A stretch of 64,000 bases of DNA, from the NCBI GenBank assembly GCA_008632985.1, contig QPGO01000044.1:310001-374000 (forward strand), written 5' to 3'. The position numbers and the translations under genes were made by a program. Origin of the DNA: Psammoneis japonica (lineage: Eukaryota). The notes under the pieces are model-generated. The model did no database searches. It was not told the origin of the DNA and worked only from the letters and a program-made list of their open reading frames with translations. Below, in pieces: positions 19,621-64,000 of this stretch (its first letter is position 1; each line of letters starts with the position of its first letter).

Positions 19621-19860
19621 TTTGATTCGCTTCCCAAAAAAAAATCTTTTCTTTCGCGCGTTGAGAATTTTTTTGGTGGCCACGGTCAGACGGGATCGAT
19701 AATATCTTTGATTGCGCGAAGCGCCGATCGTTGCTTCGGGCAGAAAATTTGTGCTTCGCGCACGAAAACGCGCAATTGTTTCCGAATTCGTAGTAAAACG
19801 CGTGGCGTCATCGCTGCGTTGTTGTCTTTTTATTTCTCTGGTTGGCAATCACAATACATC

Positions 19861-22474: not shown

Positions 22475-22569
22475 GGTTGTATTGTGTGCTATGTCACTCT
22501 GGCTTTCGAGTCAATGTTTCATGTTTTCGGGGGAAGAGCGAAAGAACATTTCACGGTGGAGCCTGAAAT

Positions 22570-25210: not shown

Positions 25211-25550
25211 TGCCTTAAAGCGAAAGCTCCCCTTGAATTAGGTGCATTGCCGGTGAATGGCGCCCTGCGGAATCGTTATGTGTGGGGAGAGACGGACCGC
25301 CGCCTCTATCGATAGGCACCCAGCACGAGGCGATGCCTTCCTCGTTATACGACGACGACATCCAAGGATGCTTTTCGTACATTGACTCCTGCATGGACAC
25401 TATCTTCATCAGCGAGAACAATGCTGCGCAGACATCATTGGTAAAAACCATCTCTCGAGCTGAACCAGGTAGCAAGAAATGTTCCATTTTATGCAGTTGT
25501 AGCCAAACTCTCTTATATATAGTTTGAAAGTTACGGTATGATTCTCAGTG

Positions 25551-37900: not shown

Positions 37901-39490
37901 TGCTGTTGCTTCAGGCAGCCAATTCCTGGGAGGTTTCATTGGCAAGGAAGTGGTGTGCAGCCAGTGGACAACAGCAGAAAAATCCAAGGTGTGGACCTTT
38001 TTGGCAGTCAGCAGTCTTGCCACAATCATCATTCAATGTGCCATTGCCCATGGACTGCCTGTGCCAGTCTTCAGAAGACCCTCAACAGGAGCAGCAATGT
38101 GCGCCAAACACAGTTGAAGGCTGTGGTGAGTTGTTTGTGGAGGCAGCAGAAGATGCTGTCAAGCACCACCAATTTTTTTCTGGTGTTGACTGGCAAGACT
38201 CTGGTGGATGACAACCTGACATTGGCCTCATCAGCCCTCCTGGATGAAACTTGCTGGACTGCCCATTGGCACCACCAGATGCCCTCATGGGAAGATGGTG
38301 CTGGTCTGTCCCTCTGCAAATGCTGGGTCAAGTCAAAAGAGGAGGCAGATGCTGTGAGTTGAGATGGAGTGCCATCTTTGCTCGGGGGAAATTTTGTGCC
38401 CCATCTTTTCAGATTTGTGCCAGATGTCCCAGTGGGAGGATGGCGCTGGTCTGCTTCCTTCACAAGTGCTGGGTCAAGTCAAAAGAAACAAATGCTGGAG
38501 CCAAGATGGAGCATCAAAGTGCTGTGATTTTGGCTGCAACTGCCCCTCAGGAGGACAGCCAGAGCCCAGCTGCAAAATCAGACTTGGCACCAGATTCCTT
38601 TCAAATCATGTGCAAAGTTTGCAAATTACATGCAAAACTCAGCTCTGTGTTTGTGTGACTGCATTGACTGCACAAACCCCCTTTTCCTTCCATTCACAAA
38701 AAAAACCTGAGCGCAGGCTTCTGCAGCAAAATGCTCCAAATGCATCTGCTCGAGCTGGAGCATGCTTCAACTTTTTTGTCAGAGCCAATGATGGTCACCT
38801 CAAAGAGACAAAAGAATGAAAGACAGGAGCAACAGATTTTGTGTGCAACTGTGCATTCAGTCACAGCTAGAATGGCTGCTCTGGCAGTGCTCTGTCTTTT
38901 AAAATTTTGTTGCCCGTGTGGCACTCAAACTCCAAACCCTTTTGTGGAGTTGCTGCAAATTTTCTGGTCCCTTGTTGGCAAATGATCAAGTTGTTGCATT
39001 TGGAGAAAGTCACCAAGTTGCTGGGAGCAATGCATTGCACTTGTTGGCTGCAATCTCAAGCTTGGCAATGAAAACTTTCAGCTGGGTGCATTTGCTGTGC
39101 CACATGGGAAGTTCCAACACTGTCAGCGGCCACAAGACTGAAGCTGGCTTTGGGGGGTGTTGTGCAAGTTGTCATCTTAACATTGGTCAAACCACCTCCT
39201 TGTGAAGGTCACCAACCAGCTCTGATGGCTGGTGGCTAGATGTGCAGATCGAAAATGGACAAATGATGTGAAGTCACAGAGCCCATGGAATTTGATGGCT
39301 CTACGTTGGAGTGTTGTCTTGTTAGGCTGCTGTTGATGGTGGTGCATGTGCATCATTGCACCGCTCATTTGCATCTTCTGATTTTGGATCTGCCAATGAC
39401 AGTGGATGCATTGTGCAAATCTGTGCTGGAGGGGAGTGTTGTCATTGTAGCCCAATGCATGAAAACACAGTACAAGACAGACAAGGGTTT
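34960..39490. repeat. TpA/CpG-depleted degenerate repeat domain 5 with internal direct repeats
   Basis: TA/CG depletion. Repeats at 36285-36420 vs 36918-37075, 36673-36870 vs 38872-39075 and 38275-38345 vs 38420-38490. Confidence 0.7.
37150..38200 (+). mobile_element. Degenerate non-LTR retrotransposon reverse transcriptase (CRE-like)
   Basis: Fragments AKEQACGADQLCAAGPEAGIKGGVH, EDVAQGGDPLGVAVHGLGLLP and FRDLGF..GSQFLGGFIG resemble the CRE-clade motifs DQLCAG.EAG.EGA.H, QGDPL..YG..LLP and RYLGGFIG. Confidence 0.6.
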
Positions 39491-39543
39491 TTGACGACCT
39501 GTGTTCTATATTAGCAAAATGCCAAGCCGTTCTCGGTGTGCTT

Positions 39544-42500
39544 TCACATGTAGTTTATACCAGCATTCACATCATCAAAGGAGCGACCATCCGTTCGCCA
39601 TACCTGATAAAGTCTTCCTGGGTCTGTCTGAATTCCGAAAAACATGAATTTGTTATCGGGGCTAAATGCGATTCCTGACGTTTCACTTCGGCCTGACTTT
39701 CTTTGCAAGACAGTGAACCATCTTCCATCGATCGTACGAGCGTGAATGCCATTAAAGCTGGCTTCTTCAGTAAAATATAGAATTGGGTATATCGGATTCC
39801 CAAATGAATCGTATTGGAACCGAAGCTGATCTGGAGTTCCCTGGAAGTTTCCACGTTTTGTTGAAGTTGAAGTCCAGCGCTCTTGGTCAAGATCAAGAAT
39901 AAACAACTCCCATTGCTTCTTACTGACAAAATAGAGATTGCCGTTGTGATGCTCAATGCCTTCTGTAAAAGTATACCTGTTCCGCGCCGATGCTTCACCC
40001 TCAGATTTGTTGCTAGACCATCGGAATGTGCCGTCACTATTGAGTACAAGCCAGCGTCTCTCACCGTTTTGATCGTTGAGCATCTCCCACTGCTGGCTGG
40101 GATCAGTGGTTATTGTAGCTGAGGTTGGAACAAATCTTCCGAGCGGACCAGATTCTCGATCATTTGTGAAGAAAAACTTTGGATTTGTGGGATCTCTAAA
40201 GTCAGAACAAAGCTCTCGTACATATCAGGACCGTCACCAACATCCGTCAACTCCGGTGGCCGTATTTCCCACGGATCGACTTGCCATATTCCTCTGCCGC
40301 TTAATGATTCTTCCATACTCACAAACGATCCCCATGGAGTACCGGCAGCACCTGTTTCCAGTTTCGGGACAAGTCAAGGAAAGTGTGACCAAAGAAAGTG
40401 ACAAAGCTACAATATGAATAAAAGTCAAAAGCGGGGATTCCTTACCACAGTTCCTTCTTGTACCCGAAAGGAGCTGCTTGTGTCCAGTAATCTGTCCAGC
40501 AATATTGAAGTAAATGCCTTGAACACCCCCGTTTGTATCATCTTCAGAATTCATCAGATAGGCAAAGCCAGAGCTTGGTCTGTTTGGGTCAGAAAAGCAC
40601 TCGCCGCCATCAGGTATTAGATGGAAGTTCAATCCCGACAACGTGCCGTCTTCGAGTCGAACTTGGGTCCCACTGATTCCAATTTGTCTGATTGCTAATC
40701 CCCTGGAAAGTTTTAATCCTAGAGCTTCAATGGACAGGTCTCCTGGAAAGTATGTGACTGGAAGAGAGTTTGGAGGAGGCGTGGGACCTACAGTGGGCGG
40801 CAAAGTTGGCAGCCCCGGTGACGGTGGCGCAGTTGGTGGTAGTACCCGTACGATGGAAAAGCACTAAACGAATACCACCAAGACATAGCGAAGAGAAATG
40901 GGTGCAACAGATTGTTGCAAGTTTGGAGCCAGAATACAAAGTATTCAATATCTTTAGTGACAAAGGAGAGAGCAGACCATTTTTGTAAAATCCAAACAGT
41001 GAATACTTACAAAATCGTTATGCCGGTATTTTTCCGTCTCGCTACACCCAGGGATTTGGTTTGGTTTAGCCTCATCGCGCTGAAAACACACCAACGACCC
41101 TTGGCAATCTTCATCTGTGTCACAGTCTCCTTCGCATAGGCCTAGAGGGAACGCATATGGTGGCCTTCCATTGTTTCCCCTCTGGGTGAGGGGAGGCCCC
41201 GGTACCGTAGCACTTGGCTGTGGAGTTGGAATCGGAGACGGAGTTGGTGTTTGAGGTGGAGTGGGTTTTCTAGTTGGACTCAAAGTCGTTTTTCGTGTCG
41301 GACTTGTTGTAGGAATCACGGTAGGACTTTGTGGATTCTTGTTTTTGGTGGGGCTGCTAGTAGGATTTAGCGTCGGGTCCTGTGTGGGGCTTTCTTTAGG
41401 AACGTTTGTCGGCATTGGGGTAGGAGTAGCTTGCTGGGGTGTGATGTCGTAGCACTGCACCACATTTTGTGGGTGGAGTTCAAGCAAACAAGGGTTGAGA
41501 ATGTTGACTCTGGTTTGTTACATGTCGAGACATTGCAACATCATATAACAAAAAACAAAATCACGAAATTGCCATGCGAAACGAATATCACATATCCTCA
41601 TGCCGGGTGTGCCAAGTGCATCGCCACACAAAGAATACTTACAAAATCGTTATGACGATGGTTTTCCGTTTTACTGCACCCCGGGATTTGGTTTGCCTTA
41701 GCTTCATCACGCTGAAAGCACACCAACGACCCTTGGCAATCTTCGTCTCGGTCGCAGTCCCCCTCGCATAGGCCTAGAGGGAATGCATATGATGGCCTTC
41801 CGTTGTTTCCCCTTTGAATAAGGGGTGGCCCAGGTACCGCAGGATTTGGCAGTGAAGGTGATGGGTTAGGTGTCGGCGGTGAAGTGAAAGATGTTGGATT
41901 CGGTGTCGGATTTGGCGGTGATGGTGTTGGGCTAGGTGTCGGCGGTGAAATGAAAGCTGTTGGACTCGGTGTCGGATTTGGGGTTGCGCTGGGATTTGGA
42001 TTAGAAGTGGGGCGTATAGTAGGATATTGTGTAGGCTGTGTTGTTGGCACAGGAGTTGGAGAAGATTGGAACGTCTGATCATAACACTGTTCGGTCGTAC
42101 ATTTTGGAGCATATCACCAAGAAACACATGAAAATATTGTGAAGACCGATTTAGTCAGGTGCAAACTGCAAAGCATTCAATGTTCAATGGGTTCCCAAGT
42201 GGAATGATGACACAAATCCAAGCACAAACGGATACTTACAAAATCGTTATGACGGTGTTTTTCCGTCTCGCTACACCCAGGGATTTGGTTTGCCTTAGCC
42301 TCATCGCGCTGAAAACACACCAACGACCCTTGGCAATCTTCGTCTCGGTCGCAGTCCCCTTCGCATAGACCCAGAGGGAACGCATATGATGGTCTTCCAT
42401 TGTTTCCCCTCTGATTAAGGGGTGGCGCGAGGTCTCTTTGCGCCGTCATTTTCGCATTTGTGCGTTCACGATGATAGTTTCGTCGGAACTGACTGCTTAT

Positions 42501-45386: not shown

Positions 45387-46625
45387 ATGATTCCTGTCAC
45401 AACATCGCCGATTCCATTCCCGCAAAAAGTTCCCAGCCAGTCGAGTCATAAGTCCAGATTCCACAAGAAGCATACCTACCGGTACCTCGATGATGATGCA
45501 GCAACGATGTCGGCAAAACGAAGCGGCTTTGTGGCCGCAGTATTAGCATTCATAACTGCTGTGATCTCATTGCTAATAATTTTGTCTTCGTCTTCTTTGG
45601 AAAATTCAGTCAATGGTCAAAATGGCCTGTCTACAAAACTGCAAGAAACGTTAACCACCACACAGCATGACCCGTGCTCACTGGCACTGTCGCATGCCTC
45701 CGCAAACCAGCCTGACGAGATTGAACGAATAATTCTTTCAAAGAATTTATTCACACTTTTACATATTGGAAAGGCCGGTGGTGGAGCCTTCAAGGGACGA
45801 GTGGAGAGTCAGTGGAAAATAAAGTACAAACAATGTCATCCCGATCCGTGCTTGCAACGTTTGACGACGTCCGATAATGAAAAGACCGTGTTTGTCCTTA
45901 CCCTTCGAGATCCCATTGACCGTTTTGAATCCGCCTTTTATTGGCAAGCCATTCTCCTGTGCAATCCGGACGGTGACAAACGCAAGATTGGGGCACCAGC
46001 ACTTTTTCCAAGACGGTTTTGTCGTAGACCACGGAATCAACAGCAGCGGATTGCCCAGGAAATTGTCTATCACAAGTACAAACATAATGTCAATCATTTA
46101 GCAGAGTCTCTGTGCAACAATGACTCGTCACAATCAAGACAAAGCGCTGTCGCGGATATTAAGGAAATTGTGCATGCCAGGAATTCAATTGGTGATTGGT
46201 TGGGAGACGAGTGGAAACGAATGGCTCCGTCAGTCATGCCGATTGTTCTCGAGGAGTCGTTTGACATTTATTCACAAGTTGACCGCGCCATTCACTGGAT
46301 AAACAATCATACAAACTTTTTGAGTTCTACCGACTTGGCTCTACGACAAAATCACGTGTATCGACTCGATTGTGACCTACGACAACAACAACAAGATAAT
46401 ACAGCCAATACACGAGTGTCTCAAAAGATTACAAATCTCAAACATTCCTCCGTCACGAGCAATACTGTTCCTTTATCGTCCTTGGGCAAAAAGTGCCTTG
46501 CTCAATACTATCGTCGAGACTATGAACTGTTAAAAGAGTTAAAGGAGCTGGCGTGCAAGTCCAAGGACTGCCGAGATGCCATCCAATCCATCTTGGACCG
46601 TCGTGCGCCCTTGTTGGGCGGATGA
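45387..46625 (+). CDS. Golgi-type sulfotransferase-like protein
   Basis: TM anchor, 5'-PSB-like LLHIGKAGGGAF, 3'-PB-like LRDPIDRFESAFYW and C-terminal YYRRDYEL. Likely start 45507. Confidence 0.7.
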   Translation: MIPVTTSPIPFPQKVPSQSSHKSRFHKKHTYRYLDDDAATMSAKRSGFVAAVLAFITAVISLLIILSSSSLENSVNGQNGLSTKLQETLTTTQHDPCSLALSHASANQPDEIERIILSKNLFTLLHIGKAGGGAFKGRVESQWKIKYKQCHPDPCLQRLTTSDNEKTVFVLTLRDPIDRFESAFYWQAILLCNPDGDKRKIGAPALFPRRFCRRPRNQQQRIAQEIVYHKYKHNVNHLAESLCNNDSSQSRQSAVADIKEIVHARNSIGDWLGDEWKRMAPSVMPIVLEESFDIYSQVDRAIHWINNHTNFLSSTDLALRQNHVYRLDCDLRQQQQDNTANTRVSQKITNLKHSSVTSNTVPLSSLGKKCLAQYYRRDYELLKELKELACKSKDCRDAIQSILDRRAPLLGG

Positions 46626-48059: not shown

Positions 48060-48489
48060 TTCCCTTTTTGCAAACCTCAGATCCTTTCTACTTCTTCTAT
48101 CCACACAGAAAAGAGGGACTGATCATTCAGGCCTCGATGACAGTTGTCAACTCTTTTCTTTTCCGAAATGCGCGCTTCTGTAGTGGACTGTTGTTATTGG
48201 GTCTCACGTTTCAACTTCGAGAAACAAGCGCCTTTCATCGAGGGGGGTAGTCCTCTTAGCACATGCAGTCAATCTTCCTTGTATCGAATGGTTTAGGCAA
48301 ATAAGTTGGTGGCTGTAATAACACATTCACTGCTTCGCACTTTCAGCACTTACTAGCTAGCTAGAGACCCTATCCAAGCACTCACGCTATCATTTACATC
48401 GATCGCTCATCGTTCATCGCCATCGCTCATCACACTGGCACACATAACTCGCACGTACTTACAAACCAACAAGCTAAAAAATTCGCACC

Positions 48490-50665
48490 ATGCCAAGTCG
48501 TAAACGCTTCACCTCTGCGGAAAAACAAAACACTTCTCCCCGCAAAGGTGCTCATAAGAAAAAGGGTAAAGGAGTTAATGGTAAAGCAAAACCACCAGAA
48601 ACTACTTCCTCTGACTCAAACAAAACAAACAGCAAAACGACCGATCCGAAGGCAACGCCTCGTACAAATTCTACGCAAAACTCACGTGCCAAGGAAACCT
48701 CCCCCAACGATGGTGAATGGACAACAGCAACCACCGCCAAGATCGCTCCCGGCTCGGTAACTCCTTACCAATGTTCACCTCTAGCCCGTCATACACGCAG
48801 CAGATCCAAAGATCAACAGCATGAAGACAATCCAAAACAAGGCCTTCCCTCAATGTCTGTCACCGATGAAGACCATGTGGTTTCTGCCGATCTACAAACT
48901 CCATCAACAAAGAATGCCTCCGCTCCGTTGGAGGATTACGACGACCCCGAACTGGCTGACCCAGAAGTCTCTCAGACAGTCTTGTCTGAATCAATGGAAA
49001 CGTACAACACATCCTATGATGAAGAACAAGATGACATGAAAAATCCAGTTAGCGAGAATCACGTGGATTCCTCTTTTGACGCCGATCCAAATGATCAAGA
49101 CTCCGACGCAGATTTCCCAGTTGCGGATCCACCAACGACAGAGGAAGAGGACAACAATGATGGCAATGATGACGATGAAGAAGAAGGAAAAGAAGACGAA
49201 GAGGAAGAAACCCCTCTAGAAAAATGCTCATCCGACGACGACAAGTGCGACTCTACGAACAAAAAGAAAGAAAACGAAGACGAAGACGATGAAGATTGTG
49301 AAGTCGAAATGGAAGAATCCGGTGAGGAATTGGACGACGAATGCTTCGTGGAAACTGAAGAAGCAGACCCAATCTGGAACGAAATCAGACACAACGCGTG
49401 GTTGGCTCTTCAACCCACCAAAAAACCCTTTCAACAGGCTCAGCAAATTTTGGGACAGGCTCTCGAGATCACTCAAGAGGTGTCAGGCAAAAACGTGTGC
49501 ATCGGGACCTGGGATGAAGAACCAAGTGATGAATGCGGTGAATGGAAAACGGTGGACGACCTTCCAGAAGGCTCTGCGAAAGAAAGGATGAAGTTCAGCG
49601 TCATGCTTGGAACCGATTGCTTCAATCCAAGAGTCAACGATGAACACACGACTTGCTGCAAGATTCGGTTCCCAGCAGCAGGAGATGCCGATGCACCACT
49701 CCCAGAGTTTGGCAAAGCTCTACAAGGTGTGTTTGAAGACAACGAAAATGGTGGCTTCAGTGTCACACGGAACCCCATTCCATGCCAATCATGCCGAGTT
49801 GAATGCATCGGATGGTCATGTGGCAGCTCCAAAACAATGTCCGAGAACACGCTGCATGACGCGATTTGTGCAAGATTGGGTTTTGAAGATCATCCCGAAA
49901 AATTAGGAATCCAATGGCGCTCCATTGCAGGACCAGACGGCAAGCGCCCGAAATGCGACCCATCGGACCCAAAGAAAAATCCTCAGGCGCTACACATCGA
50001 TGTGGAGGAACACTCCGCTCATGAAGCAAGGATGGCAGCAGAAAGGCTCTGGCGAGCAGGCGCAAAGAAAAGGTGTCTCGGACTCACCATGCGATTCGTT
50101 CCATGCTGCACGTCAACCATGATGCAGTGCGCACCAGACGATGTGAGGAAGAACATCTCAGAGCTCGCTCAACGCCAACACCACTTTACGGAGCAAGTGC
50201 TCGGCCAAGTCGATTTTGGTTTCTTCAAAGACCTCGATGAACTTGTTGTCGACGAGAATGGGAAAAAATGGTCCCTGCGTCACTTTTTAATGCGCAAACG
50301 CGTTCAGGATCCAACGGCAGAAAAGAAAAAGTTCATTCCCCTCATCCACCATGTCGACACTAAGTGGAACCGTCCATCAGATCACGTGGTTACGTTCCCA
50401 AAGAAAAACTTTGCTGAAGCAATGGCAGAGTTGAACAGAGTTGTCCCGGAGACCTTGCACATCTTTGGTCAAGAAGCTGCCATGTGGTTCAAATCATCAG
50501 GTGTTGCCGCCTGTCGCACCACGGTCTATGACGCCGAGACAGGCAAGACCACGTCCTCTGAAAGTGCAACAATCTCGAAGATTATCCAAGATGATCCATG
50601 GGGGCTGGAAGAGGACTGGAAAACGAATGTCTCGACAAACAATGCTTCCAAACGTCAGAGTTCTC
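48490..50665 (+). mobile_element. Large acidic ORF, probably ORF1 of a diatom non-LTR retroelement, 3'-truncated and TpA-eroded
   Basis: Basic then acidic N-terminus and motifs IGWxxGS, LGIQWR, ALHIDV, MRFVP. Tyr almost vanishes after about 49020. It runs into antisense Copia sequence (ORF stop 50799). The family assignment is an inference. Confidence 0.5.
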
Positions 50666-53174
50666 AAAGCAAACCGTCTGTCCTCAGCAAGGATGTACAG
50701 TGGCGAATCGGAGCAGGGGTTGTCCTGAACCTTAACACCAAAGTGCCGCAGCTGGTTTGGGTTAACCAGCGAGTGCTCCATGGACTCCGGCATCCATGAG
50801 CCCTCGTGGAAGACCAGAATGAAAGTTGCTCCCGATGTCGGTGAAGTCCACACCGTGGCTGCCGAGACAATTGGGACACTCTTGATGGACTCGCATCCCT
50901 CGTTAAAAGGCGATGCATCACATTCTCGTCCAGGGTGACCCAAGAGGGTAAAGTTTTGACCAAAAACAGTGGTGTCAGCATGCGAATCCATTTCAAGACG
51001 CCCATGCTGTGCCTTGCTCACATCACGGATGTGGGTGATTCATGTGGTGTCAGACCGCGTTGCCGACACACGTCTCGTCGAGGCAACAACCTCACAGATG
51101 CGTTTGACACAGGCACGTGGACACTGCTCCTTTGATCGATGTGGCTGTCCCCCGCCCCATTGCAGCAACCACAACAAGAAGTTTATGATGCAACCAAGCA
51201 GGGTCCAGCTTGGCAGTCATTTCTGCTTTCCTCGGCGCTTTTCGCTGCGACCACCGAATGCGTCTCCGGCATTGTCTCCATCTCTGCCGCCAGCCCCTGA
51301 TTCATCATCGCCAGAATCGGCACTGACATTAGTGTTCAGGGCGGAGATTTTGCGGTTCGCTTCTTTAAGCTGCGACGACAGCTTCCGATTCTTCTTCTTG
51401 AGCGACTTGACGGATGCAGCACGGCGTTTGGTTGGTTTAGGTTGTTTGGCGACACCCAGACGCACGCGCTCGTCGACAACCTTCTGTTTGTCCTCCTCAC
51501 TCAACTGGTGCCAGTTTTTGTGGCATCCAGTGTCAATGGATCCATCCTCATTGTAAATGGTGCCACCCTCTCTTCCTCCTCCAGAGGCAACTGCGGCAAT
51601 CGCACGACGATGCGCAATCGTCTCTGGAAGGGTGGCGACTTTGGCGGCAAGATGATTGGCCGCTGTGGTGAACGTGATGCCTCCTCCAAACTCATTCTGC
51701 GCCTTCAAGGTTTCAACTGCTGCTTGTAGTGATTGGTGCTGCGTCTTCTCAAAAAGGATCCGCAACTTCTGGGCCTCCGTTTTCGGTTCGTCGTTCTCGT
51801 CAAAAATGTTGAACATTTCTTGGAGCTCATTTACAAACGACTCAAACGGCATGGCGCGTTCACTCTTGTAATGAAGGGTGTTCTCCATGCGCTCGGCTTC
51901 AGAGATGCGGCGGGAGGTGTCACCTTCTCCCTGGAAATGGTCGCACAACGCCCTAAAGTCAACTCGTCCGTTCTGTTCATTCTTGTGGTCCTTCAACCAT
52001 TGCTCACTGGGTGTGCCCGTGGTTGGGGACTCGATGAGCAGATGAGCCGTACGAGCGTCAGCCTCGAAAGCTGGGCCTTGGAGGGGTGCACATGCAATGC
52101 ACTTCTGGACGAAAGTGTTGTGGCCTTGAGGTTCGGGTGCATCGTTTTGACGAATGCAACACACCAACGGTGCGCCAGAAACTCCCAGCATGATGCCAAG
52201 CACATTCGTCAAACCAGTGCTCCACTTGACCCAATCCTTTTCGCTCTCTAACATTCCGGGCGACGCCTCTTTGCTAAGAGAGTCAGCAGTGGCCTTGGTC
52301 TGGGAGCGGATCTCGGCGCGACTAAGTGCCGTCTGGAGAGCAGCACGGAAAGTGGCTTGATCAAGCCCATCCAGAGTGGGATTCTCGCTCACGCGACCAA
52401 AGTCCTGAACCCAATGTATAAGAGCTTTGAGTCAACGACTGCGGGCCAAACCAAAATGAATGCGCCCTTCAGCAACCGTCCTCCTAGCGTACGAAGACGC
52501 AAGAGAATCGATGTCCTCTTCCTTGAGGTCTTCTAAATCGTCAAAAGACGCAAAGTCCGCCATGAGCGGGACTCGCTGAGCTGGATCAACAAATCCGATC
52601 CATTCGAGCACTGTCTCGATAGGATCCGGAGGAGCAGCCACCATGGTGGCACCTGTGCCAGTGGGAAAACAGAGTTATGTGAGAAATCATAAATTCAAAA
52701 GGATGTCTCAGTTTGTGTTGGCGATGACACACAGCCATCAGAAGCATGGAGACTGGCCATGTCTCCTCACTGCTCGTGCATTCACTGATGCCAGGCGATG
52801 ACAATCATCATACACCCTTCGATCGACTGGCATTCGTCGCCATAACCCTGCCACAATGGCACGACCGTCTCTTTGCAGTTGTTCAATGCTTTTCGTCAAA
52901 CCAAACTTGAGTTGACGACTTGGCTCTGACAAAGCGAGTAAATCTAGCTGCCGAACAGGCTCAGCCACTCACAGTCTTAGTACGATAACGCGAATACAAC
53001 CGATAAGATGCTTCTAGGCCTGTTACAACTACAACGGATGCAACAAGTGAGACCAATCGATGGTCATGGTCACTTTTCCACCGACACCACGTCACAGTCC
53101 CGCCACTTCAACTTATAGAGCGCACTAGACAGACTCTGATACATCGGATTTAATTCGGCATCAGACACCGAACA
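50665..53174 (-). mobile_element. Truncated Ty1/Copia (CoDi-like) LTR retrotransposon: LTR, gag, protease
   Basis: Gag 52644-51217 has one in-frame TGA at 52432-34. Protease LEMDSHADTTVFG and HSLVNPNQLRHFGVKVQDNP. No integrase or RT remains. Confidence 0.8.
53021..53174 (-). repeat. Putative 5' LTR of the Copia element
   Basis: TGTT...AACA termini and TATA-like CTATAAG on the minus strand, upstream of gag. There is no second copy in the window to confirm it. Confidence 0.4.
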
Positions 53175-53531
53175 CCGTTAAAAAAAAACATTTATTGGAA
53201 GAAATAATGTGAAATGTCCGAGATCAACGTTCCCACTATCTGCAATTCCCGAAACAAATCCGGCGAACAAAGGCACACAAGCCCACGAAAACAATAAACC
53301 TTTGGTAAGAAGACACTGTCACCCTTCCATGTCTCCTTGTTCCCAATGCGGAGTGACATCAATGCTACATAGTTCGCCGCAAATTTCATCTTCACCCACC
53401 GGAGCTGCGCGCACCCTTTGTTTCTCAGTCGTGCCAACCATGCCGTTGTAACTCATCTTGCTACACTCGATCTTTGACACCGTAAAGGTCATAGTTTTCT
53501 CTGGTTAGATAAATTGAGAAGGCAACAAAAG

Positions 53532-55330
53532 ATGCGGTTCGACGTTCTCTGCGTGCAGTTCTTGATGCTTGGCATTGGCCATCGACTCGTGCTGTCCACA
53601 GTTGCTGTATCGGTGGACGATCCTGAATTCAAAGAGAAAGCCGAAGACGCGATGCGCTCCATCTCAGAGGAGATGAACGGGATTCTCCCACATGGGCTGC
53701 TGCGTGCTCATAACAAGCTCACTACGTCACAGAAAGCCCTACAAGATAGTCGAAATTTGATGGTAGATGGACAATGGATGCAAGTTGGAAATGATATTGA
53801 TGGAGAAGCATCAAATGACGAGGCAGGTTCGGCAGTGGTCATGTCAATGGATGGGACACGAATTGCGGTTGGTGCGCGTTACAACGACGACAAATACACA
53901 AATGGCGGCCACGTTCGCATCTTTGAGCTGGAGGGATCCATGTGGAAACAGCTTGGCGGTGCTATTGAGCCCCGTGGCAAAAACATGTTTGCCCTAGAGG
54001 GTTATGGCTCTACTAAAATGGCCATGTCTGGAAACGGGCAAAGGTTTGTGATTGGATCACCAGGTTTTTCTCCCGGCACATCAACAATGCGGGATACGTG
54101 AGCATTTACGATTGGAATGGAAATAGTTGGAGGAGGACAGTCATCGATGGGACTAATGCTTTTGAAAGAAAGGGACTGGACGTGACGTTGTCAGACGATG
54201 GTCGCCGCATGGGATTGCTTACCAACAAGTGGGCTGAAATCTACGAGAGAAATGGGCGGGATTGGAGCATTATTGGTAAAATTGGCGCTTTAAGCAGACT
54301 CCCATCCGGACTAAACAGTGGCACAATTGTTCTTTCTGGCAGCGGAGAGCATGTTGCTATTGCAGATTTGTCTGGTGCTCGTTCCTTTGGCGTTCAAGTC
54401 TTTGAGTACAAAGAAAGCACTTGGACACAACAAGGCTCAAATATTCCAGGTTTCCTCACCAAACATGCATGTCTATCATTCAATGGAGATCGAGTAGCGG
54501 TGTTTGACACAAATTCCATGGTTAATCCCCGCCCGGGATTTGTTCGCGTGTATGATTGGAACGGGAGCTCTTGGAAACAAACAGGAAACGACATAGTTGC
54601 TGATGGCTTGGAGTCCCTGTCAATGTCAAGTGATGGTCGCCGCCTCGTGATTGGTCGCCTCTATCCTGGTATCGCCCGAGTTTATGAGCAGGTTGACTTG
54701 TCTTGGGTACAAGTTGGCACTGACTTGCTTCCTGAGGCAGAAAATGATTGGTTTGGGAATGCAGTTGCTATTTCAGGCCAAGGCGAATATGTTGCTGTCG
54801 GAGCACCACGCAATGATGGCGTCAATGGCAGCTTCTCTGGTCACGCCCGCGTCTTCCGATTTGAAACAGGCTCCTCCAAAAAGTTTCCGGAAGATTTCAA
54901 CAAGGTCACGTGTGCCTACTCTACATGTCTTGATGAGTTGCTCGATGAGTACGACAGCAGCATCAATTTTGGCAGCTCGAAGAAGGCGTATGCCACCTCC
55001 AGGCGAAAGGCGGTGTACTCTAGAGAAATACTTGCCAACGGAGGCAAGGTGATTGCATCCATAGAGAGAATGAAACAAGCCATGAAATGGATTGAGGAAC
55101 TTAAAAGTACGTATCCTGAATTTTCCAATAATATCGGAATGGCCGCGAGTACGTGCACACTTGACTTTGCAAGCGATTTCATCGCGGCCTTCCGTGGCAT
55201 CGGCATTCTGGATGATACGCTTCTTGATGATCTGATTGATACAAGACTGGAGGCGTCTAAAAAGGACAGACAAAAGAACGGTATAAGCTCAGCGTCTGGA
55301 ACAGCAAGGGAGCTATTCGGAAACTTATGA
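53532..55330 (+). CDS. Secreted FG-GAP/integrin-alpha-like beta-propeller repeat protein
   Basis: Signal peptide and repeats WxQxGxDI.G..D..G.AV..S.DG.R.AVGA..ND...GH.R.F. Frameshift near 54065 (GSPGF..NAGYVSIYDW). Confidence 0.75.
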
Positions 55331-55699: not shown

Positions 55700-58600
55700 G
55701 ACTCTAAGTTGCACTGTAGATCGTAGCATACGTCGAAGCCTGATTGTCGCCACCACACCGATGGGCACTTTGCTTGTCAGAGAAAAGGTACGATGTGATG
55801 ATGGCCGCTCTAACTGGCCGAGCGTTCAGTGGATCCAGTCTTCAGGACCCAATGTCACTGCCGTGGAGCAGAAACTGATGCCTCCTGGAGGCCCTTCAGC
55901 TGATGATCTCAATGGAGGAGAAGGTCCAGAGTCAGGTTTTGTTGACAACACGGAGGAGGATCGTCTCCACTGAATTCCACCAACTGCAGACACTTCTCAC
56001 AAACTTGAGGGCATTCTCCTAGAACCACATGTGTGCCCCTGTGTTTTTTTCTCTTGCTGGAAACAACTGTGTCCACCATCTTGTCATTCCATGTAGCCAG
56101 GAACCTGTCCTTTCTTGTGGAAGCTGCTCCTTTGGCATGTCCTGCCTTTCCCTTCTTCTTGATGGGGCTTGATCTTGTCCTTCTTTCCACCTGGCTTTCA
56201 TCACATGAAAAAAGCAAGTGAGGCAACATGTGCAACCTTCCCAATGTGTCCATCAGCAATGGCAGTGTTGAGTTTTCTCAGCATGCTGGTGCAGATTTGT
56301 TGCTCTGCATGAAACCATCATGAACACAAAGAGAAAAGTCCGCCCCAGACATTTTTTGCCATGCAAGGACATGTTGCCAACAGCACTCTGCAATTCATCT
56401 TGCTTGATCCCATCCTCTGTGCACCAAAGATCCCCCAGCCTCATAGATGCAAGTGCAGCTGTGACCACTTTCTTGAAATTGAACAAGCAAAACACTCTTT
56501 CCATCTTTGATGACCCACAGCCATGACCACAACTGAAAGAAGCAGGTTTTCCCAGAACCAGGAGGACCTGTTGTTGTGCAAAGCATTGTCTTGTTAGATT
56601 TTTTCCAGAACTCCTCCGTGACCACCACCTTCTTAAGATGCACCAAGACTCTGCAAACAAATGGAGCTGCGCCCCATTTCTTCCTTGGTTTGTGGAATGT
56701 TGCTGACATGGAGCCTGCTCCATTCACGGGCAATTTCTTGTTTGCATTTGCTGGGGCTGCAGGTCTGTTGTTTGCAGTTTGAGGTGAGCTGGAGACTTGG
56801 AGTTGACAGTGATTGAGTGTGTTGTGGTGTGTTGTGGGTTGTGAGAGAGCCGCGTCATGCCAGATTTTGTGGGGGGGGGCTCTGCGTGCAAAACGCACAT
56901 TGCATGAGCACAAACAAAGGACCTTCACCAGCCCAGATGGTCTGGCCCTCTGTCTCCCAGTCCCTTGCTCATTGCATCTTGTTGGTTCTCAAGGTGGCAC
57001 GGGTGCAAAAGTGGGCCAGATTCTGTGTGCGCAAAGCCCAGCGTGTTTTCTGCACAAATCCCTTGCCAACTTCAACCCTCTCCAGGATGAAGACACCAAA
57101 AGGCCTGGTCTGGGAGATTTGGCATGAGGAGGTGACATGGCCTTGTTGCTTGCAAAGCACCACAAGTGTGTCTGCACCAATGTTGTCCAGATTGGGTTGC
57201 TTCTTGAGAGTCCAGCCTGCTTGGACAGCTGCCTTGCAAGTGCTGCCATTGTTGGGAATGAGGGTTTTGCATTTCTTGGGCCTGCTCTGTCTCAGCTTGA
57301 CAGGTGCTGCAGGATCTGTGGGCAAATCATCTGCTTCAGAGGTCAAAGGCACTGAATTGGCAGCCGCAGCTGCAGAAGCAGGCTTTTTTGCACAGCAGCA
57401 GCAGCAACCAGTTCATCAGAAGTGACTTTTTCCTCTGCTTCTGATTCTTTTGGATGACACAAAAAGTTCAGCATGACTCCATCTGTCCACCGATTTCTTG
57501 GGGAGCAGCATTTTCAACTCTTGAGAAACCTTCTGAGTGGCAGCTTCTGCAACCAACATCCACTGAACTGTGGGTTGTTGCTTGGCACCAGCTTGTGGTT
57601 TGGGGACAGGCGTGGACTCTGCTTGGTGTGGTGAGTCGGCAACAGCACTGTGATGAGAGACCTGGACAGAATCGGCGTTTGCTTCTGGCCTGTCTTTCAC
57701 CTTTTTGTTGGCTTGGGTGCATGTGACGACGGGACATGCTTGGGCATGGATCCCTTGAGAGACTGCAACTTCCTGTGTCCCATGAAGTTGTTGTGCTGGC
57801 ATTGGGCAGCCCCCCCCCTGCCTTGCACTGGTGCAAAAAATCTGCAGAATTGATGCAGTTGTCCTCACACGCCACATTTTTCACCACGCACTTTGCGCAC
57901 CAGGCAAGAACCAGAAGGGAAGGCTGAGAACAACCCTTGTTGTTGTTGCAAGTGCATGCTTCACACTCAATTGACACCTTTCCCTTTCCCCCAAGGATTT
58001 GTCAAGAGCCAGCACGCACCTTGCATTTTCTTTTCTCTTTTGATTTGTGGGAGTGACAGCCTGGATGATGCAAACAATGCACCCATGTGTGCAGTGCAAG
58101 GAGCTCAGGGAAATGGATTTGGAAAAGAAGCTCCATTTTGCATTTGCACAGAAAATGGCCAGGTTAAATGTGGCAGTCTTTGGCAGCTTCAACACGTGTG
58201 CAGGAATGCTCCCTCAACGTGTGGTTTGGATTGGCCCCGCCAAAATGGCATTGACCCTTTGCCAGCTCCCCTTTTGAGCTGATCTCAACAGGCTGTGCGT
58301 GCCATGGCTCTTGATTTAGAAACCAATCAAAGACAGCTGTGGAAGGGAACAGAGTGTGTGTTTGACATGCCACAGCACCTGCTGCATCTGGGAAGACCGC
58401 CAGTCTTCTGCCAGTGTTTCTTGACAGTGCCAAAAGTGCCCAAACCGAATCTTGCCTGGGTGTGTCCTTTTTGCACTGCATCTGTTTGCTGAGCAATGGG
58501 AGTGACTGGTGAGATGCACATGGAAGAATGTGGTGCAGCATTTGTGCCACAGTGCCTGGTCAAGTTTCTCAACAATGAGTGTGGTGCGGTCCATCCTAAT

Positions 58601-61600
58601 GTGACGACTGCTCCAGTTGTTGAAGATGTCCAAAGAGACATGGAAAACTTGCTCAAACAATGTGCGCCAGGAGGCAGATTCCTCATCCACATTGACAAGC
58701 ATCAGAAAATGACAAGTGGCCTGGATCAAGAGAAGGCAGCTGTTCCACCAACAAGGTGCTGTTCAAACCTTGGTGGAGATTCCTTGCATTGTTGTTGTTG
58801 CTGTGCACACAATGCTTCTCATGGAGATTGATGCTGCTGGGAGCCTCAATGCATGCCATCACCCACTTGCTGTCCCATTGCTTGACATTGATGCAATGGC
58901 CAAGATGTTGACAGAGTTTGACGCGCAGCTCCCTGGAAGGGGCTTGACGACCACTGAATCCAGTCTCCTGTCATCTGTGTGCTTTTGCCTTGCCCAGAAG
59001 ACATCAAGTGTTGCGCTCTTGTTTCTTCATGGTGTTGATCAGGCAAACAAGATGGAGTCACTTTTAAGTGAAACTTTGTGCATGCCATGCAATCTGCACA
59101 AGACATGAAGAACTGCCTCCAGAAACTTCTTTCCACAGCACAATTGAACGTGTTGTTGCAAAAGGAAAAGACAATGTCTGCAGAGGCTGCAAAGTTGCCA
59201 TGTGGTGTCCCTGAATTGAAGTGGGATTCTGGTTTGGTTGAGCATCAAGTCAGGGACATGCTCCTTGCTCCTGCTGGCTGTGTGACAACTTGAATGGATT
59301 CCTTGTTGCAGATGCGTGATTCAACATGTGAGGCATTTCACTTTGGAAGGGATCATTTTAATAAGATCATGCACAGTCACGACCATTCTCTTTTGTCTTC
59401 CACTCCAATTGAGGCAGCGCATGCATGGGTGCTTTCTGTTTGCTCTGTGATGCAAGGCGAGACAGACTTTGGTGCACACACATTCTGTGCAGAATGTGAG
59501 CACTTGTCTGGTGGGCGGCTTTTCACAAAGGGTTTTAAGGAAGATTTTGAACAATGGCACAACAAACTGGAAGTGAACACATTCCACTTTGCACTGGAAG
59601 GTCCCAACACAAGCCATGGGCAAGATCACCCCCTTTGTGACCTGTTCTTAAAGACAGGGGATGACTGTTTGGTTCTGGTTGATTTTGCTGCTTTTGATGA
59701 TGCCAAGTTTGCAACAAAGCAGCCCAACAAGCTGCCCATGGGAATGAAAAGAAATTGCATGATTAATTTTGTCAAGACTTGGAAAGGGAAGTGCAACCAG
59801 ATGGGTGTGCCACACTCAATGGTGTTGTTCTTGCACTGTTCAATGCTGCCAATTTTGATGAGACAAAATTTGATGGGAACTCTGTTTCAATTGTCTGTGG
59901 AGCCAAAGCCACATGTGTCATTGTGCTTGAATTGAAGCAAGTTGCTGAAGGTGCTCCAGCAGTGGCTTTCACAGCCAAATCTCACAAGCAGCTGGTGCGG
60001 CATGTTGGAATCAGGCTGCAGATGGAGGCTGCGGGACAAAAGCAGCCTGTTGCTGGGTTTGTCATCATTGTGTGCAACCATGGCACATCTTATGTTGTGC
60101 AAAAGCTGCATGGATCATGGTTGATTTCTGCTTGCTCTGCATTCAAAACTTCCATGTCAAAGGAAGAGGAAGCAAATCTCGTCCTGGAACAAGCTCCTGA
60201 CATGCTGGACAAGATTTGAGATCAAATTCAGAGATTAGATTCCATTTTTAGTCCAACACCTGGCAGCAAATTTCACAGGAACAAGCTGTTGACATGATCA
60301 TCTACGTGGTGTTGAGTGTTTTGGCCTTTCTCAATGTCTGTGTGGATGAAATGTGCGTGGTGCTCCACTTTGTTGATGCGATTCATGATGTCATCATCCG
60401 CCAATGATTTCTTTTTGAATTCGTTTCTTTCAGCCTTTCTGTTCTTGCCTTGGTTTTGATTCAGGCCGACCAAGATGAGTGTGACTTTGGTGATTGGTGG
60501 CTCTGGTGAAGGCTGTCTGCTGACAGAAGAGCTGTGTCTCCAACTCAGCTTCATGCCAGACAGTTTGCGTGTCATTTGGCATCCATGGTTGAGGTGGCCA
60601 TGGTTGCCAATGTGGCTTCATCTTTGCCAGCCACTGTTTTGTTGCGTTTGGCACAGTCTGAGAGTTTGAAAAAGTCTGTCACTTCATTTGCAGGGGCATG
60701 TGGCTCTTTGGCCATTGTCATCATCATCGTTGTCACCAGCGAACCTCTTGCACTTGACTGGTTGTTCTCAGGTGGCCAATCAGACTTGACAAATTTTAGA
60801 TGTTTTGGCATTTTGTCTTTCCACACTTCACCAAGCTTCTCTGCTGCTGCACTGCTGGCTTGCTTGTTGTCTGACAGCTCTGGTGAGCTGCCAGCAACTG
60901 ACAATTGTCTTTGAAGAGAGCCAACACATCGTGCATGTGTGCCTTGCTTGCTTTCCCCTCAGATCAGGTGATGCACCTCTTCAATCACCGCGGGATCATT
61001 GGCATTCCTGTTCCATGCTTGTGGCAATGATGAACAACAGGCTGTTGTTCTCTGAAACAAAAAACAGCTTGCACTTTGCAGCCATGCATCCATTGCAGTC
61101 ATGCATTTGATGTGGTTGTGACGGGTGGGCTCCTTTGCTGTCTCACCGACATGATGATTGTGCACCTCCTGCCACAAATTGGAAACCCCCTTGTGAAATT
61201 CAGTCCAATGGATGTTTCCCAGAGCTCTCACTCATTGTCCATCTTTGCCACCTTCATTGCCCACCTGGGCAATCAAGGTGACGTTTGCTGTCCCACCATT
61301 TGATGGTGAAAGTCATTGCCTTTGTGGCAAAGTGCAGGAAATCATGCTCCCAGACCAGTTTTTAGACACTTGAGTCCTTGTTTTGCAGGGGGTGGTGGAT
61401 TCATCATTTGTGACAATGATTGAGTGCCAAATGTTGGATGTCAATGCATGATTTTGGTGACCACCAGTGACCCCCAAAGTCTTGTGTCATGAGGAAGCAG
61501 CACCCCCAATCAAAAAACTTGTCTTTGACAAAAAGACAGTCAAGTCACAGTTCATGGCCCTTGTCAAGACCATGCACAAGCAAGGGTGTGAGCAAAGCAC

Positions 61601-64000
61601 TCAGAGTGGGGCAAGTTGCCAAAGGAAAGATGAACTGCTCCATGCCAAATTTCATGAAATGGCAGTCATCAAATCTCACAGAAGCAGCTGAGAATTTCTC
61701 AACAGGGTCTCTTTGAAGCAAGGTTTGTGCCCACTGGCAGCCATGGCTCCAGACAAAATGATGACAATGATCTGGTGCAAGAATCCACTCAAAGATTGTG
61801 ACACTGTAGAAGCAGTTCATGTCAGAAAGATCTTTGACTTTGTTGAATTGGAAAAGCATTTTCTGTTTGAGAGAGACTTGGATGAGTGTGCACACATTTG
61901 TGAGCACGGCTGAGTGCAAGCAAAAAGGCACTAGAATCTCATTGTCTGCAGTCAACAAGAAAGTTGTGGCCAATGTGTTAAATGAGGGGTGACTGGCTGA
62001 GGTTAATTCAGGAGTCAAAGAGGATGATGTCACTGCATTTCATGAGGCCACACCCCCAGTGCTGACTGTCACAATCATGAAAGAGTTGTCTCAAACATGT
62101 TGAAGGCACAGAGGTCATCATCCTGCATGAGATCTCACACACCTTGCAAGCAAATGTGTCACAACAAGATTGTCCATTGAACACTCTTTGTTTGTGAACA
62201 AACAACTTGCTTGTTTGTTTTCTTAAAATGATGTTGCCCTTGAACTTAAGCCAGTCAAATAAAAAAATTGGCCACACACACATTGTGATCAACCAACATG
62301 TGAAACAAGAAATGGCTCACATTTTCTTTCAAACAATCACCTGTTGCATGAAGTCTGAACACAAACAACAACTCATTTCAATGCATTTGGCAGACTGTTG
62401 TGTGTCAACTTCCCAGTCTTGGTGCTGTCTGATGGCAACACTTGATCATCACACAAACATGCTCCACCAGCGCATCTCATTGTGCCAGCACCTCTTTCAT
62501 TTTCTGTTGCTGTCCCTGAACCCAAATGCTCCAAACCCAGGACTTTCCAAGGCATTGTCTTTTTTGCCCAGGACAAAATCAGCACAGCACAGTTCCCAAA
62601 GATGTGCCATCATGCCATGCCACATGTTGTCAAGCGTGTCACCCATGCACCCATGAACAAGCTTTGTTGCCTCTTTGCTCTGTCAAAAACAGTCAAACAA
62701 ATGCCACGCTGCAACACATCTGAAGATTGTCATGGCACCCCTTGCAACATTGGAGAATTTTGCCTGTTGGGGGGGCAGATTCTCATGATGATCCCATGCG
62801 AACATGCAAGCCAGTTCTAGAGTGAATGGCATCTGCTGTGCTGCTCTCTCAGCAGACAGAGATCATGGGAAAATGCAAGTGGTTCAAGCAAAAGTTGAGG
62901 CACAATGCAACACATGCATTGCCAAATTGCAGCCATTGATGACCATCATGAGGCGCAACCAGGTTTTCATCTGATGTCGCACATTTTCCCTGGCAAAGAC
63001 AAAAAGAAGTGGAGGCAGCACTGCTTGTGAAAAGCTGATCTCTCTGCTGACAAACCCAGTCTTTGCAAGAAGCTTTTGGATTTAGCAGACTGAGCTTCAT
63101 TTTGCATCTCCTCAGACACAGCTGGATTTTTCTTGACCTGATCAAGTGCATCTGGCATCTCTTGCAGCACATCTTGAGTGCATTGGGTGTCAACAACATG
63201 TTTCCAATCATTTTGTGATTTCTTGTCACTGCTGCTGCAGCTGTGGTTGCTCTGCTTTGTTTTAGAAACCATCATTTTGTGATGCTCTCTCATGTTGTGA
63301 CAAATGTCAATGTGGAAGCACCTCACACATGTTGTCCTTGCACTTAAAAATTCAAACGGGCAGGTGAGTGACAATCAAGAGATGTGCCCTTTTTGTCACA
63401 ATTGTGACATGTGTGAAGGTGCCACCACAGGCCACAACACAAGCAGCACTGATCATTTTAGTGTGTCACAAGCAGCAGTGATCAACAAGCAATTGATTGG
63501 CAATCAATTGACCATTTTTGTTGATTGTTGGAGGCAGGTTGAAAAAAATCTTGCTCTTGCATTTCCTGCTCACACAGCGGAACAAAAAAGCAACCCATCT
63601 GCTGCTGATTGGCTGTTGCCAATTGTTTGAGGCAGGTCAAAGAAAAAAGTCTTGCTCTTGCATTTCCTGCACACACAACAGAACAGAAAAAGTGGCCATT
63701 TTGTTGCTGTGGTTGATTTTCCACATGCAACTGGTTGGTGCTTGAGCAAATTTGTCATTGGCCCATGTGTGTGGTGACATCATCATGCTGTGGCTTCTGC
63801 GCATGAGGCAACAGCTACAACAACCATTTTGTGCATGCGCTCTGCAGCAATTCCCAAACAAAAACAATGACTGCATGCATGGCCACTCACTTCTGGGAGA
63901 ATGACAAGCCTGCTCTGCTTGGGGGCCCAATGAGATGCCATGCAGAGTGCAAGAAAAGAGAAAGCAAAATCTGTTTTGAAGGTGCTGCTGCACTTCCACC
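55700..64000. repeat. TpA/CpG-depleted degenerate repeat domain 6 (runs off the window end)
   Basis: More than 8 kb with very few TA or CG. About 100-bp tandem repeat at 63525-63720. Confidence 0.75.

Follow-up and report, generated by a model that had tools for sequence, protein, structure and literature searches.

Organisation of the locus

We analysed a window of 64,000 nucleotides of Psammoneis japonica (GenBank assembly GCA_008632985.1, contig QPGO01000044.1, positions 310,001 to 374,000 of the forward strand; all coordinates below are those of the window), with attention to a block at 49254-52939 from which the dinucleotide TpA has nearly vanished while CpG has been kept. Two sequences of opposite orientation meet in this block: ORF1, a plus-strand open reading frame (ORF) of 773 open codons that extends into the block from its left side, and a minus-strand fragment of a Copia-like long terminal repeat (LTR) retrotransposon, within which ORF1 ends (Table 1). 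A sequence-only reading had claimed that TpA is turned there into CpA and TpG by a hypermutation directed at repeats, and the work described below follows up that claim.

The Copia-like fragment comprises the LTR/leader, gag and the start of a putative protease, and its integrase and reverse transcriptase are absent. The frame downstream of gag bears a DSHADT motif, which we read by eye as that of a probable protease, and the segment 53132-53143 of the leader is one that we take to resemble a primer-binding site. The label CoDi-like, which we take to belong to a diatom Copia element, presumably applies. Searches with gag gave 221 relatives, the best of them 77% identical, and the sole one with a named organism came from the diatom Fragilaria crotonensis (42%); Pfam found no family on gag or the neighbouring frames. 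Depth was taken from X1, a set of contigs from an independent run that were laid on the window, as the summed word depth of the contigs, and was compared in bins of 667 bp. It was 1580-2467 over 50671-53338 and 54-75 in the flanks, ORF1 included, indicating that the Copia part has many diverged copies and the rest none that is at least 80% alike; this depth is not a copy number, and it covers copies at least 80% alike, so that older, more diverged copies are possible.

A word-indexed protein search with ORF1 returned no homologue, while a full HMMER search recovered 138 relatives at E<=1e-3 (best 4e-61, about 30% identity). These relatives, which are cluster representatives, all align to residues ~300-720, that is, to the TpA-free part of the protein. 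Pfam recognised nothing on ORF1, and none of 18 scanned homologues scored above its cut-off. The AlphaFold (AF2) model of the conserved domain, built on 40 sequences, had a mean predicted local distance difference test (pLDDT) of 92.8 and predicts repeated alpha/beta units weakly like RRM/ferredoxin-like folds (best Z 6.8 in the wide VIA search, within the noise range); there was no match to the fold at E<=0.001 in PDB or BFVD. A search for the ORF1 family in viral contigs gave 40 pattern matches, none of which was confirmed.

Loss of TpA with retention of CpG

The window was divided into 128 bins of 500 bp, for which the observed/expected ratios (o/e) of TpA and CpG were calculated, and edges were refined with bins of 250 bp. 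From 49001 to 52000, TpA o/e was 0.10-0.25 and CpG o/e was 0.79-1.10, and the 13 dinucleotides other than TA, CA and TG stayed within 0.15 of their o/e in the normal bins. The block 49254-52939 is the sole extended stretch of the window in which TpA is gone but CpG is kept, as came out of the comparison of both ratios along the window, a check that the sequence-only reading had proposed. Its TpA counts were all reproduced: 7 in 49261-50520 (o/e 0.09, with 70 CpG, o/e 0.90), none in 49261-49720, and 12 in the 240 bp of the host stretch 5401-5640 (o/e 0.69). Its statement that CpG remains abundant in the block also agrees with the recount (o/e about 0.9), the entire segment 49261-52400 holding 27 TpA (o/e 0.15) and 188 CpG (o/e 0.88). 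The 5' segment 48490-49020 had 16 TpA (o/e 0.49).

TpA makes up 4.0% of dinucleotides in the normal bins (1575 TA in 39499 bases), and at this rate the probability of finding no TpA in 460 bp was 1e-8 and that of finding at most 7 in 1260 bp was 2e-14. At 2.4%, a rough estimate of the rate of the family, the latter probability was still 4e-7. The observation of TpA loss is confirmed.

Table 1. Position of the features discussed in the text
Feature	Position	Strand	Remarks
TpA-only depleted block	49254-52939	.	About 1 TpA per 110 bp, CpG normal; from the list of TA positions and the bins
ORF1, 773 open codons	48478-50799	+	Crosses the left edge of the block, ends within the antisense Copia fragment; depth 54-75, as in unique flanks
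ORF1, 5' part	48478-49253	+	TpA normal to intermediate, 4 Tyr; TA-type differences from X1 already present
ORF1, conserved domain	49375-50640	+	Uncharacterised protein family, heavy missense change
Multi-copy Copia-like LTR retrotransposon fragment	50671-53338	-	LTR/leader, gag, putative protease start; truncated before pol
gag ORF	51226-52644	-	Placed by tblastn at 52644-51226
Downstream frame, protease-like DSHADT motif	50600-51219	-	Holds QDNPCS and EGCESI; from translation only
LTR/leader end	52939-53338	-	Normal TpA, 25 TA in ~370 bp; motif like a primer-binding site at 53132-53143
Doubly depleted block	11751-14250	.	Partial at 12-13.5 kb; one CpG-rich bin, 13001-13250
Doubly depleted block	17501-19500	.	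Partial at 17501-18500, complete at 18501-19500
Doubly depleted block	22501-25250	.	0 TA and 0-3 CG per 250 bp in 23001-24750
Doubly depleted block	30251-32250	.	From bin composition
Doubly depleted block	35001-39500	.	From bin composition
Doubly depleted block	55751-64000	.	Reaches the end of the window; mostly unique depth

Replacement of tyrosine in ORF1 and gag

The consequences of TpA loss were visible in the proteins. ORF1 has 4 Tyr in its first ~181 residues and 1 in the other ~590, and its conserved domain had TAY/TGY/CAY codon counts of 1/16/14, against 30/11/18, 12/10/15 and 13/5/5 in three host ORFs. All the Cys- and His-bearing strings cited in the sequence-only reading were found in the translations, DEDCEV, DECFVE, TTCCKI, VPCCTS, QHHF and IGWSCGS in ORF1 and LVCCIR, QDNPCS and EGCESI in the minus-strand Copia frames. 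It had also described a positional gradient along ORF1, of which the retention of Tyr in the 5' part stands, although the gradient is partly compositional, the segment 48925-49350 being a T-poor acidic low-complexity tract.

When the ORF1 domain was compared column by column with 45 of its 138 relatives, the homologues averaged 2.64% Tyr (minimum 1.1%) and 1.24% Cys (maximum 2.8%), whereas the ORF1 domain had 0.2% and 3.8%, respectively. Nine columns (305, 376, 381, 393, 513, 517, 569, 644 and 663) have Tyr in at least 40% of the homologues; ORF1 retained it in none of them and had Cys or His in four (305 H, 381 C, 393 C and 569 H). Six further aromatic columns (341, 448, 493, 544, 636 and 679) likewise read Cys or His. 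In the same comparison of gag with 120 homologues, Tyr was at 0.5%, while the homologues averaged 2.06% and had at least 0.9%. Column 91, which is Y in 118 of the 120, is C here, and columns 303 (Y in 62) and 304 (Y in 87) are C and H, respectively. Amino-acid changes of the TA type in gag numbered 6 forward and 1 reverse, whereas the homologues had means of 0.6 and 0.5 and at most 3 forward. Neither family was found already to carry Cys or His at these sites and, judged by these homologues, the loss of Tyr and TpA is to be taken as derived, not as inherited from the ORF1 and gag families.

These comparisons bear on the alternative that coding sequences of both families are intrinsically poor in TpA and Tyr, by codon usage or avoidance of UpA, with no hypermutation at all. 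The gag genes related to that of the window have TpA o/e of 0.28-0.49 and the normal bins themselves reach only 0.57, as this alternative would expect, and the avoidance of UpA in cytoplasmic RNA is described as general in eukaryotes in the accessible part of one report (PMC3829696). We nevertheless regard it as very unlikely: the gag of the window is the lowest of 51 loci and has Cys or His where its family has Tyr, the ORF1 domain falls to an o/e of ~0.1 with 1 Tyr in 422 codons, non-coding doubly depleted blocks elsewhere in the window go down to 0.00-0.1, and the differences listed between the window and X1, described below, are TA-centred.

Comparison with a second data set

The contigs of X1 reproduced the TA-poor sequence of ORF1 at a depth of ~53, against a baseline of ~55, and did not restore TA at the affected sites. 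Over 57419-63348, which they covered as well, 32 of 5758 bases carried another letter. X1 and a further set, X2, which matched identically, share one sample label, so that haplotypes and separate preparations are both possible sources of the differences. A further run, X3, gave nothing that matched the window. Over 20 kb, X1 and the window differed at 400 transition places and 77 transversion places, and differing letters numbered 19 in ~1.16 kb of ORF1 but 5 in a normal flank of 2509 bases.

Site details are available for 40 of 484 difference entries, the last of them at 49742. Among those listed, 13 events fell in 48582-49742 and 8 of them were TA-centred, 3 being TA against CA or TG and 5 adjacent double changes between TG and CA; of the other events, 1 was CG against CA and 4 were of other kinds. 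Most of the events listed have the TpA context that the sequence-only reading had predicted. The TA-type differences extend to the left as far as 48582 (TA/CA), with TG/CA flips at 48867-8 and 48915-6, in the 5' part of ORF1. A flip of this type is explained if two lineages have each resolved one palindromic ancestral TpA (or CpG) independently and, since the block is rich in CpG, the ancestor was most simply TpA. Between paralogous copies in the window, such CA<->TG flips accounted for 9 of 112 events in depleted blocks, whereas normal sequence had 5 among 438 events (Fisher p 3.6e-4). The controls in this count were host-type paralogous repeats (4450-6045 / 39560-41178, inverted; 3235-4623; 40992-42426), which are 72-91% identical and have normal TpA and CpG. 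The ORF1 locus is probably polymorphic, and the change at TpA there is probably ongoing.

Disagreements of the CA<->TG type between the window and X1 are also what would be expected from an artefact of assembly or base-calling, in which a modified base at TpA (N6-methyladenine, a modified T or inosine) is misread as G or C in a strand-dependent manner, and the sequencing platforms are unrecorded. With such misreading, only half the depth would be expected, and about one site in two would appear flipped. The depth of X1 was full instead of halved, in contrast to the true two-haplotype spot at 45551-45653, where it splits (33.9 of 65.1), and the flips were a minority of the sites. Moreover, the changes at the protein level, the sharp blocks and the loss of CpG together with TpA elsewhere in the window fit real sequence. 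For these reasons we hold an artefact to be highly improbable.

The spot used for that contrast was covered by two X1 contigs, each of half depth, with 12 differences within 100 bp, suggesting two diverged haplotypes; the organism is probably diploid and heterozygous.

Both strands of a contiguous territory are affected

In the block, CA and TG had similar raw counts (318 and 297), and Tyr was replaced within one ORF by both Cys (TGY, an A->G change in the sense strand) and His (CAY, a T->C change in the sense strand). Together with the balance of dinucleotides given below, this agrees with the proposal in the sequence-only reading that TpA goes to CpA and TpG on both strands. The loss of TpA ran unbroken from the Copia fragment on the minus strand into ORF1 on the plus strand; the process acts on a contiguous territory made of the truncated gag/protease fragment (the protease being putative) and ~1.4 kb of an opposite-strand gene without extra copies. 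That reading had also called the process repeat-targeted, a term that the depth does not support: neither the ORF1 part (48.0-50.67 kb) nor the greater part of 56-64 kb rises above the depth of the unique flanks, and only 50671-53338 is piled up with copies, the 52939-53338 end of which keeps its TpA. With both strands hit and the loss spread into ORF1, strict dependence on repeats does not fit, and editing of a sense RNA is ruled out as the main cause.

The latter point concerns the alternative that the transcript of the retrotransposon was hyperedited from A to I by an ADAR-like enzyme and that the edits were fixed by reverse transcription. The element is indeed a retrotransposon, and ADAR-type enzymes prefer U before the edited A, according to the accessible part of a preprint (bioRxiv 10.64898/2026.01.13.699255). 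The loss, however, continues into an opposite-strand neighbour that has no extra copies. Were a sense RNA edited, Tyr should become Cys and nothing else, but His was found in its place as well in both ORFs, and CA and TG are about equal; the LTR/leader, part of the same RNA, was spared; and the TA-type differences between the window and X1 arise in situ. ADARs are, to our knowledge, confined to animals, which also counts against RNA hyperediting, and we consider it highly unlikely.

As to the distribution of the two products, a sense-strand bias suggested by the o/e of TG (1.62) and CA (1.06) at 49-50 kb was rejected, CA being at least as frequent as TG in most bins of 300 bp; the gap between the two ratios is due to the A-rich, T-poor composition. 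In a runs test for strand-coordinated tracts of CA or TG, six of the seven depleted regions stayed at |z|<2 and the seventh, 30338-31885, had z -4.2; one normal region had -2.85.

Three compositional states of the window

When all 128 bins were classified, 79 were normal, 39 were depleted of both TpA and CpG, 9 of TpA only and 1 of CpG only; the depleted footprint amounts to 48 of the 128 bins. Six of the nine TA-only bins make up 49001-52000, and the remaining three sit within or at the margins of doubly depleted blocks. This distribution, set against the 39 doubly depleted bins and the single CG-only one, supports the claim that the process is separable from CpG decay. The boundaries of the blocks were sharp, within at most 250 bp.

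Normal bins had o/e of 0.57 for TA, 0.93 for CG and 2.40 for CA and TG together. In the TA-only bins CA+TG rose to 2.83 (+0.43), against losses of 0.40 in TA and 0.06 in CG; in the doubly depleted bins, which pooled had TpA o/e 0.06, CpG o/e 0.19 and CA and TG each near 1.8, it rose to 3.65 (+1.25), against losses of 0.51 in TA and 0.74 in CG (1.25). In both depleted states the gain in CA+TG matches the loss of TA (and CG), as conversion of TA and CG to CA/TG predicts. The case for erasure of TpA is strongest in these doubly depleted blocks and in the ORF1 part of the flagged block.

The sites that survived were not a random sample. Among 81 TpA remaining in the doubly depleted bins, 58% followed a T (22% in normal bins) and 43% preceded an A (20%); TTAA (25) and TTAG (16) were frequent and many stood after runs of T, while ATAN (7%, normal 27%) and NTAT (4%, normal 26%) were rare. 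This indicates that the agent reads at least the bases that flank TpA and works poorly on TTAR, and the bias points to an enzyme with an extended context preference. A sequence-specific filter of some sort would also be expected if TA motifs were selected against (as targets of TA- or TTAA-inserting transposons, as a nuclease site or as regulatory signals) in a genome with no mutator. We judge this to be extremely unlikely, selection being implausible as a means of clearing nearly all TpA from kilobases of sharp-edged non-coding DNA; it would not destroy conserved Tyr either, and the exact balance of CA+TG indicates transitions.

According to the genetic code, transitions at TpA create no new stop codon in any frame, TAA and TAG becoming CAA, CAG or TGG, and TAA also TGA. 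Stops are only removed or converted, so that mutated DNA retains its open frames and extends them; this accounts for the 773 codons of ORF1, open despite heavy missense damage, and for the 110 overlapping ORFs of at least 90 aa in the doubly depleted blocks. None of these 110 ORFs reached the Pfam gathering cut-off.

The six doubly depleted blocks consist of complex, non-satellite sequence. At the right edge of the block at 35-39.5 kb, the minus-strand ORF 39180-39554 came nearest to the cut-off, with a sub-threshold match to zf-BED (19.3 bits, E 0.0011, cut-off 20.6), and is possibly the remnant of a transposase of the hAT type. An inverted pair of 82-bp segments, 95% identical (14466-14547 / 19712-19793), lies just beyond the right edges of two depleted blocks, and there is a weaker pair at 16822-16879 / 19647-19705; both may be element termini. 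A tandem duplication (23610-24061 / 24067-24522, 93% identical) lies within the TA- and CG-free block, and only 2 of its 19 differences were CA<->TG flips, suggesting that most of the erasure predates the duplication. At 56674-57340 the summed depth rose to ~420 inside the 56-64 kb block, otherwise of unique depth, a short repeated segment being embedded there. Elsewhere in the window, ORFs 53478-54098 and 54017-55327 have FG-GAP repeats, the best match of a host adenylate/guanylate cyclase ORF was 46% identical (metagenome proteins), the assembly has a single N at 28245, and an Rfam scan and a tRNA scan of the 64 kb gave no match each.

Proposed explanation

Taken together, we think it likely that the block is the footprint of a process acting in situ on DNA, symmetrically on both strands, that converts TpA to TpG and CpA and is of the same kind as the hypermutation reported for the chlorarachniophyte Bigelowiella natans. 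It would consist of A:T->G:C transitions at TpA on either strand, by which Tyr codons would be destroyed (TAY->TGY/CAY). The lesion may be the enzymatic deamination of adenine to hypoxanthine, read as G, and a candidate enzyme would be similar to tRNA adenosine deaminases (ADAT2/TadA-type), the natural substrate of which, A34, follows U33. The target would be chosen by a silenced state of the chromatin rather than by repetitiveness, and the loss of signals of the TATA and AATAAA types could be a route to silencing. Since TA-only DNA exists and CG-only DNA hardly does, the simplest order is TpA first and CpG later: a fast erasure of TpA may be followed by a slower loss of CpG, most simply by deamination of 5-methylcytosine. 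The flagged block would then have been targeted recently and the six doubly depleted ones long ago. That the process is a genome-defence mutator, as the sequence-only reading had suggested, is plausible. With regard to the foreign or mobile nature of the targets, the regions are discrete and sharp-edged and one part is a Copia fragment, with no Pfam family on the gag and ORF1 parts.

Several points weigh against this explanation. Some replacements are of a type that transitions at TpA cannot give, namely V->C at column 92 of gag and L->C at column 394 of ORF1, and in both comparisons several columns of conserved Tyr read M, S, A, N or F. The R->C changes at column 163 of gag and column 464 of ORF1 suggest that some CpG in the block has gone to TpG as well. 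The 50 related metagenome gag loci are themselves low in TpA (mean o/e 0.40, range as given above) with CpG near 1.0, and the gag of the window, at 0.22, although the lowest, is only ~2-fold under this family baseline. The LTR/leader at 52939-53338, part of a multi-copy element, retains normal TpA. Among the survivors there are 16 TTAG but 2 of its complement CTAA, an imbalance not expected of a purely strand-symmetric process. X1 consists of contigs, not raw reads, it shares its sample label with the data from which the window probably derives, and its listed site details cover a small part of the differences. The direction of the loss is read from the balance of dinucleotides and from protein homologues, and the enzyme, the targeting signal and the timing are inferred.

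A wider combination of these elements is possible, and we put it forward tentatively: this protist, probably a diatom and not the chlorarachniophyte of the first report, would run an active defence that deaminates adenine in DNA, directed at silenced territories and not at repeats; TpA would be stripped quickly and before methyl-CpG decays, under a context rule of its own (ATA and TAT cleared, TTAA and TTAG spared), and more than a third of the 64-kb region would have been rewritten in this way.

Comparison with known systems

In methylated transposons, deamination of 5-methylcytosine depletes CpG, yields TpG and CpA and leaves TpA. It shares with the present case a palindromic pyrimidine-purine target and its products, and loss of CpG was seen in the six doubly depleted blocks. 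It differs in the flagged block, where CpG is at 0.79-1.10 while TpA is gone, and where a second, independent process is needed for that reason.

Fungal repeat-induced point mutation (RIP), as presented in the accessible part of the B. natans preprint (bioRxiv 10.64898/2026.01.13.699255), is likewise a dinucleotide-specific transition hypermutation of mobile DNA that acts in situ on both strands and can leak into neighbouring sequence. RIP, however, runs in the other direction, from CpA to TpA; in the present case TpA is lost and CpA and TpG are enriched. RIP needs a duplication, while here parts at the depth of unique flanks (at the 80% likeness covered by X1) were hit, and it creates stop codons, which the process described here only removes or converts. 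ADAR and TAD enzymes, among them the ADAT2/3-type TAD enzymes that edit mRNA from A to I in the sexual stage of fungi (accessible part of PMC11156358), resemble it in that A is converted to I, which is read as G, and in that U or T is strongly preferred 5' of the edited A; they edit RNA and their edits are not inherited, whereas the changes seen here are fixed in DNA, on both strands and in contiguous territories. The likeness to APOBEC3 is that of a hypermutation of the deaminase type serving as a defence against retroelements and viruses (same preprint); according to what is available of that source, APOBEC3 deaminates C (G->A in the plus strand) on single-stranded cDNA while reverse transcription proceeds and is strand-asymmetric, unlike the present case.

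The closest system is that of B. natans, and the view in the sequence-only reading that no pathway of this kind had been described is out of date, the same type of mutation being described in a preprint of 2026 (Mettrop et al., bioRxiv 10.64898/2026.01.13.699255), from the accessible part of which the following is taken. In mutation-accumulation lines, integrated viral DNA undergoes TpA->TpG/CpA hypermutation: of 302 nuclear point mutations, 231 hit two integrated viral regions, one of a giant virus (single-copy and silent) and one of a virophage; all but one of the 231 were A->G or T->C, and these 230 were all at TpA, at a rate of ~6e-7 per site per generation. The genome has 124 clusters poor in TpA and rich in CpA+TpG, domains of transposable elements (TE) are enriched among its TpA-poor coding sequences, and an ADAT2-like deaminase was proposed as the enzyme. 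No other report of TpA-specific hypermutation, in diatoms or elsewhere, was found in the literature that we searched, which left out most subscription journals.

TpA-specific hypermutation of DNA therefore has, in the literature covered, one prior report, on one alga. The host studied here appears to belong to a different lineage, and a search with three ORFs of the window found no identical protein in the collections. Finding the pathway in another host that is apparently unrelated, and with a much heavier footprint, would show that it is not the curiosity of a single species and would permit the enzyme to be sought by comparison, among deaminases or methyltransferases common to both hosts and absent from relatives that have no footprint. 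If the same enzyme family were at work in both, erasure of TpA would be a widespread and overlooked genome-defence pathway of the SAR (stramenopile, alveolate and rhizarian) lineages, shaping a large share of some genomes. There are also consequences for annotation: in genomes of this kind, a long ORF in TA-free DNA does not count as evidence for a gene, and orphan proteins rich in Cys and His may be mutated relics.

The two systems differ in several respects, as far as the accessible part of the preprint goes. TpA makes up 6.0% of dinucleotides in the genome of B. natans, against 4.0% in normal DNA here, and the ORFs here are long and uninterrupted. The footprint is denser in our window, 48 of 128 bins, compared with 124 clusters in the whole genome there. 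Most of the depleted DNA here is also poor in CpG, a combination that does not figure in the Results and Discussion of the preprint, and neither does the context of the survivors, TTAA and TTAG being spared and ATA and TAT cleared. The mutation rate was measured directly in B. natans, whereas here a footprint is read from the sequence. The features that the window adds are that loss of TpA can precede loss of CpG, that it crosses the borders of elements into sequence without extra copies, that it spares TTAA and TTAG, and that frames stay open. In their essentials the two are alike: TpA is changed to TpG and CpA symmetrically on both strands and in discrete regions, leaving clusters poor in TpA and rich in CpA+TpG; sequence without extra copies and TE-like genes are both affected, the former being single-copy, silent foreign DNA in B. 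natans; and the target region appears to be the more diverged one between two samplings of one line, for which the window and X1, possibly two haplotypes, would stand here.

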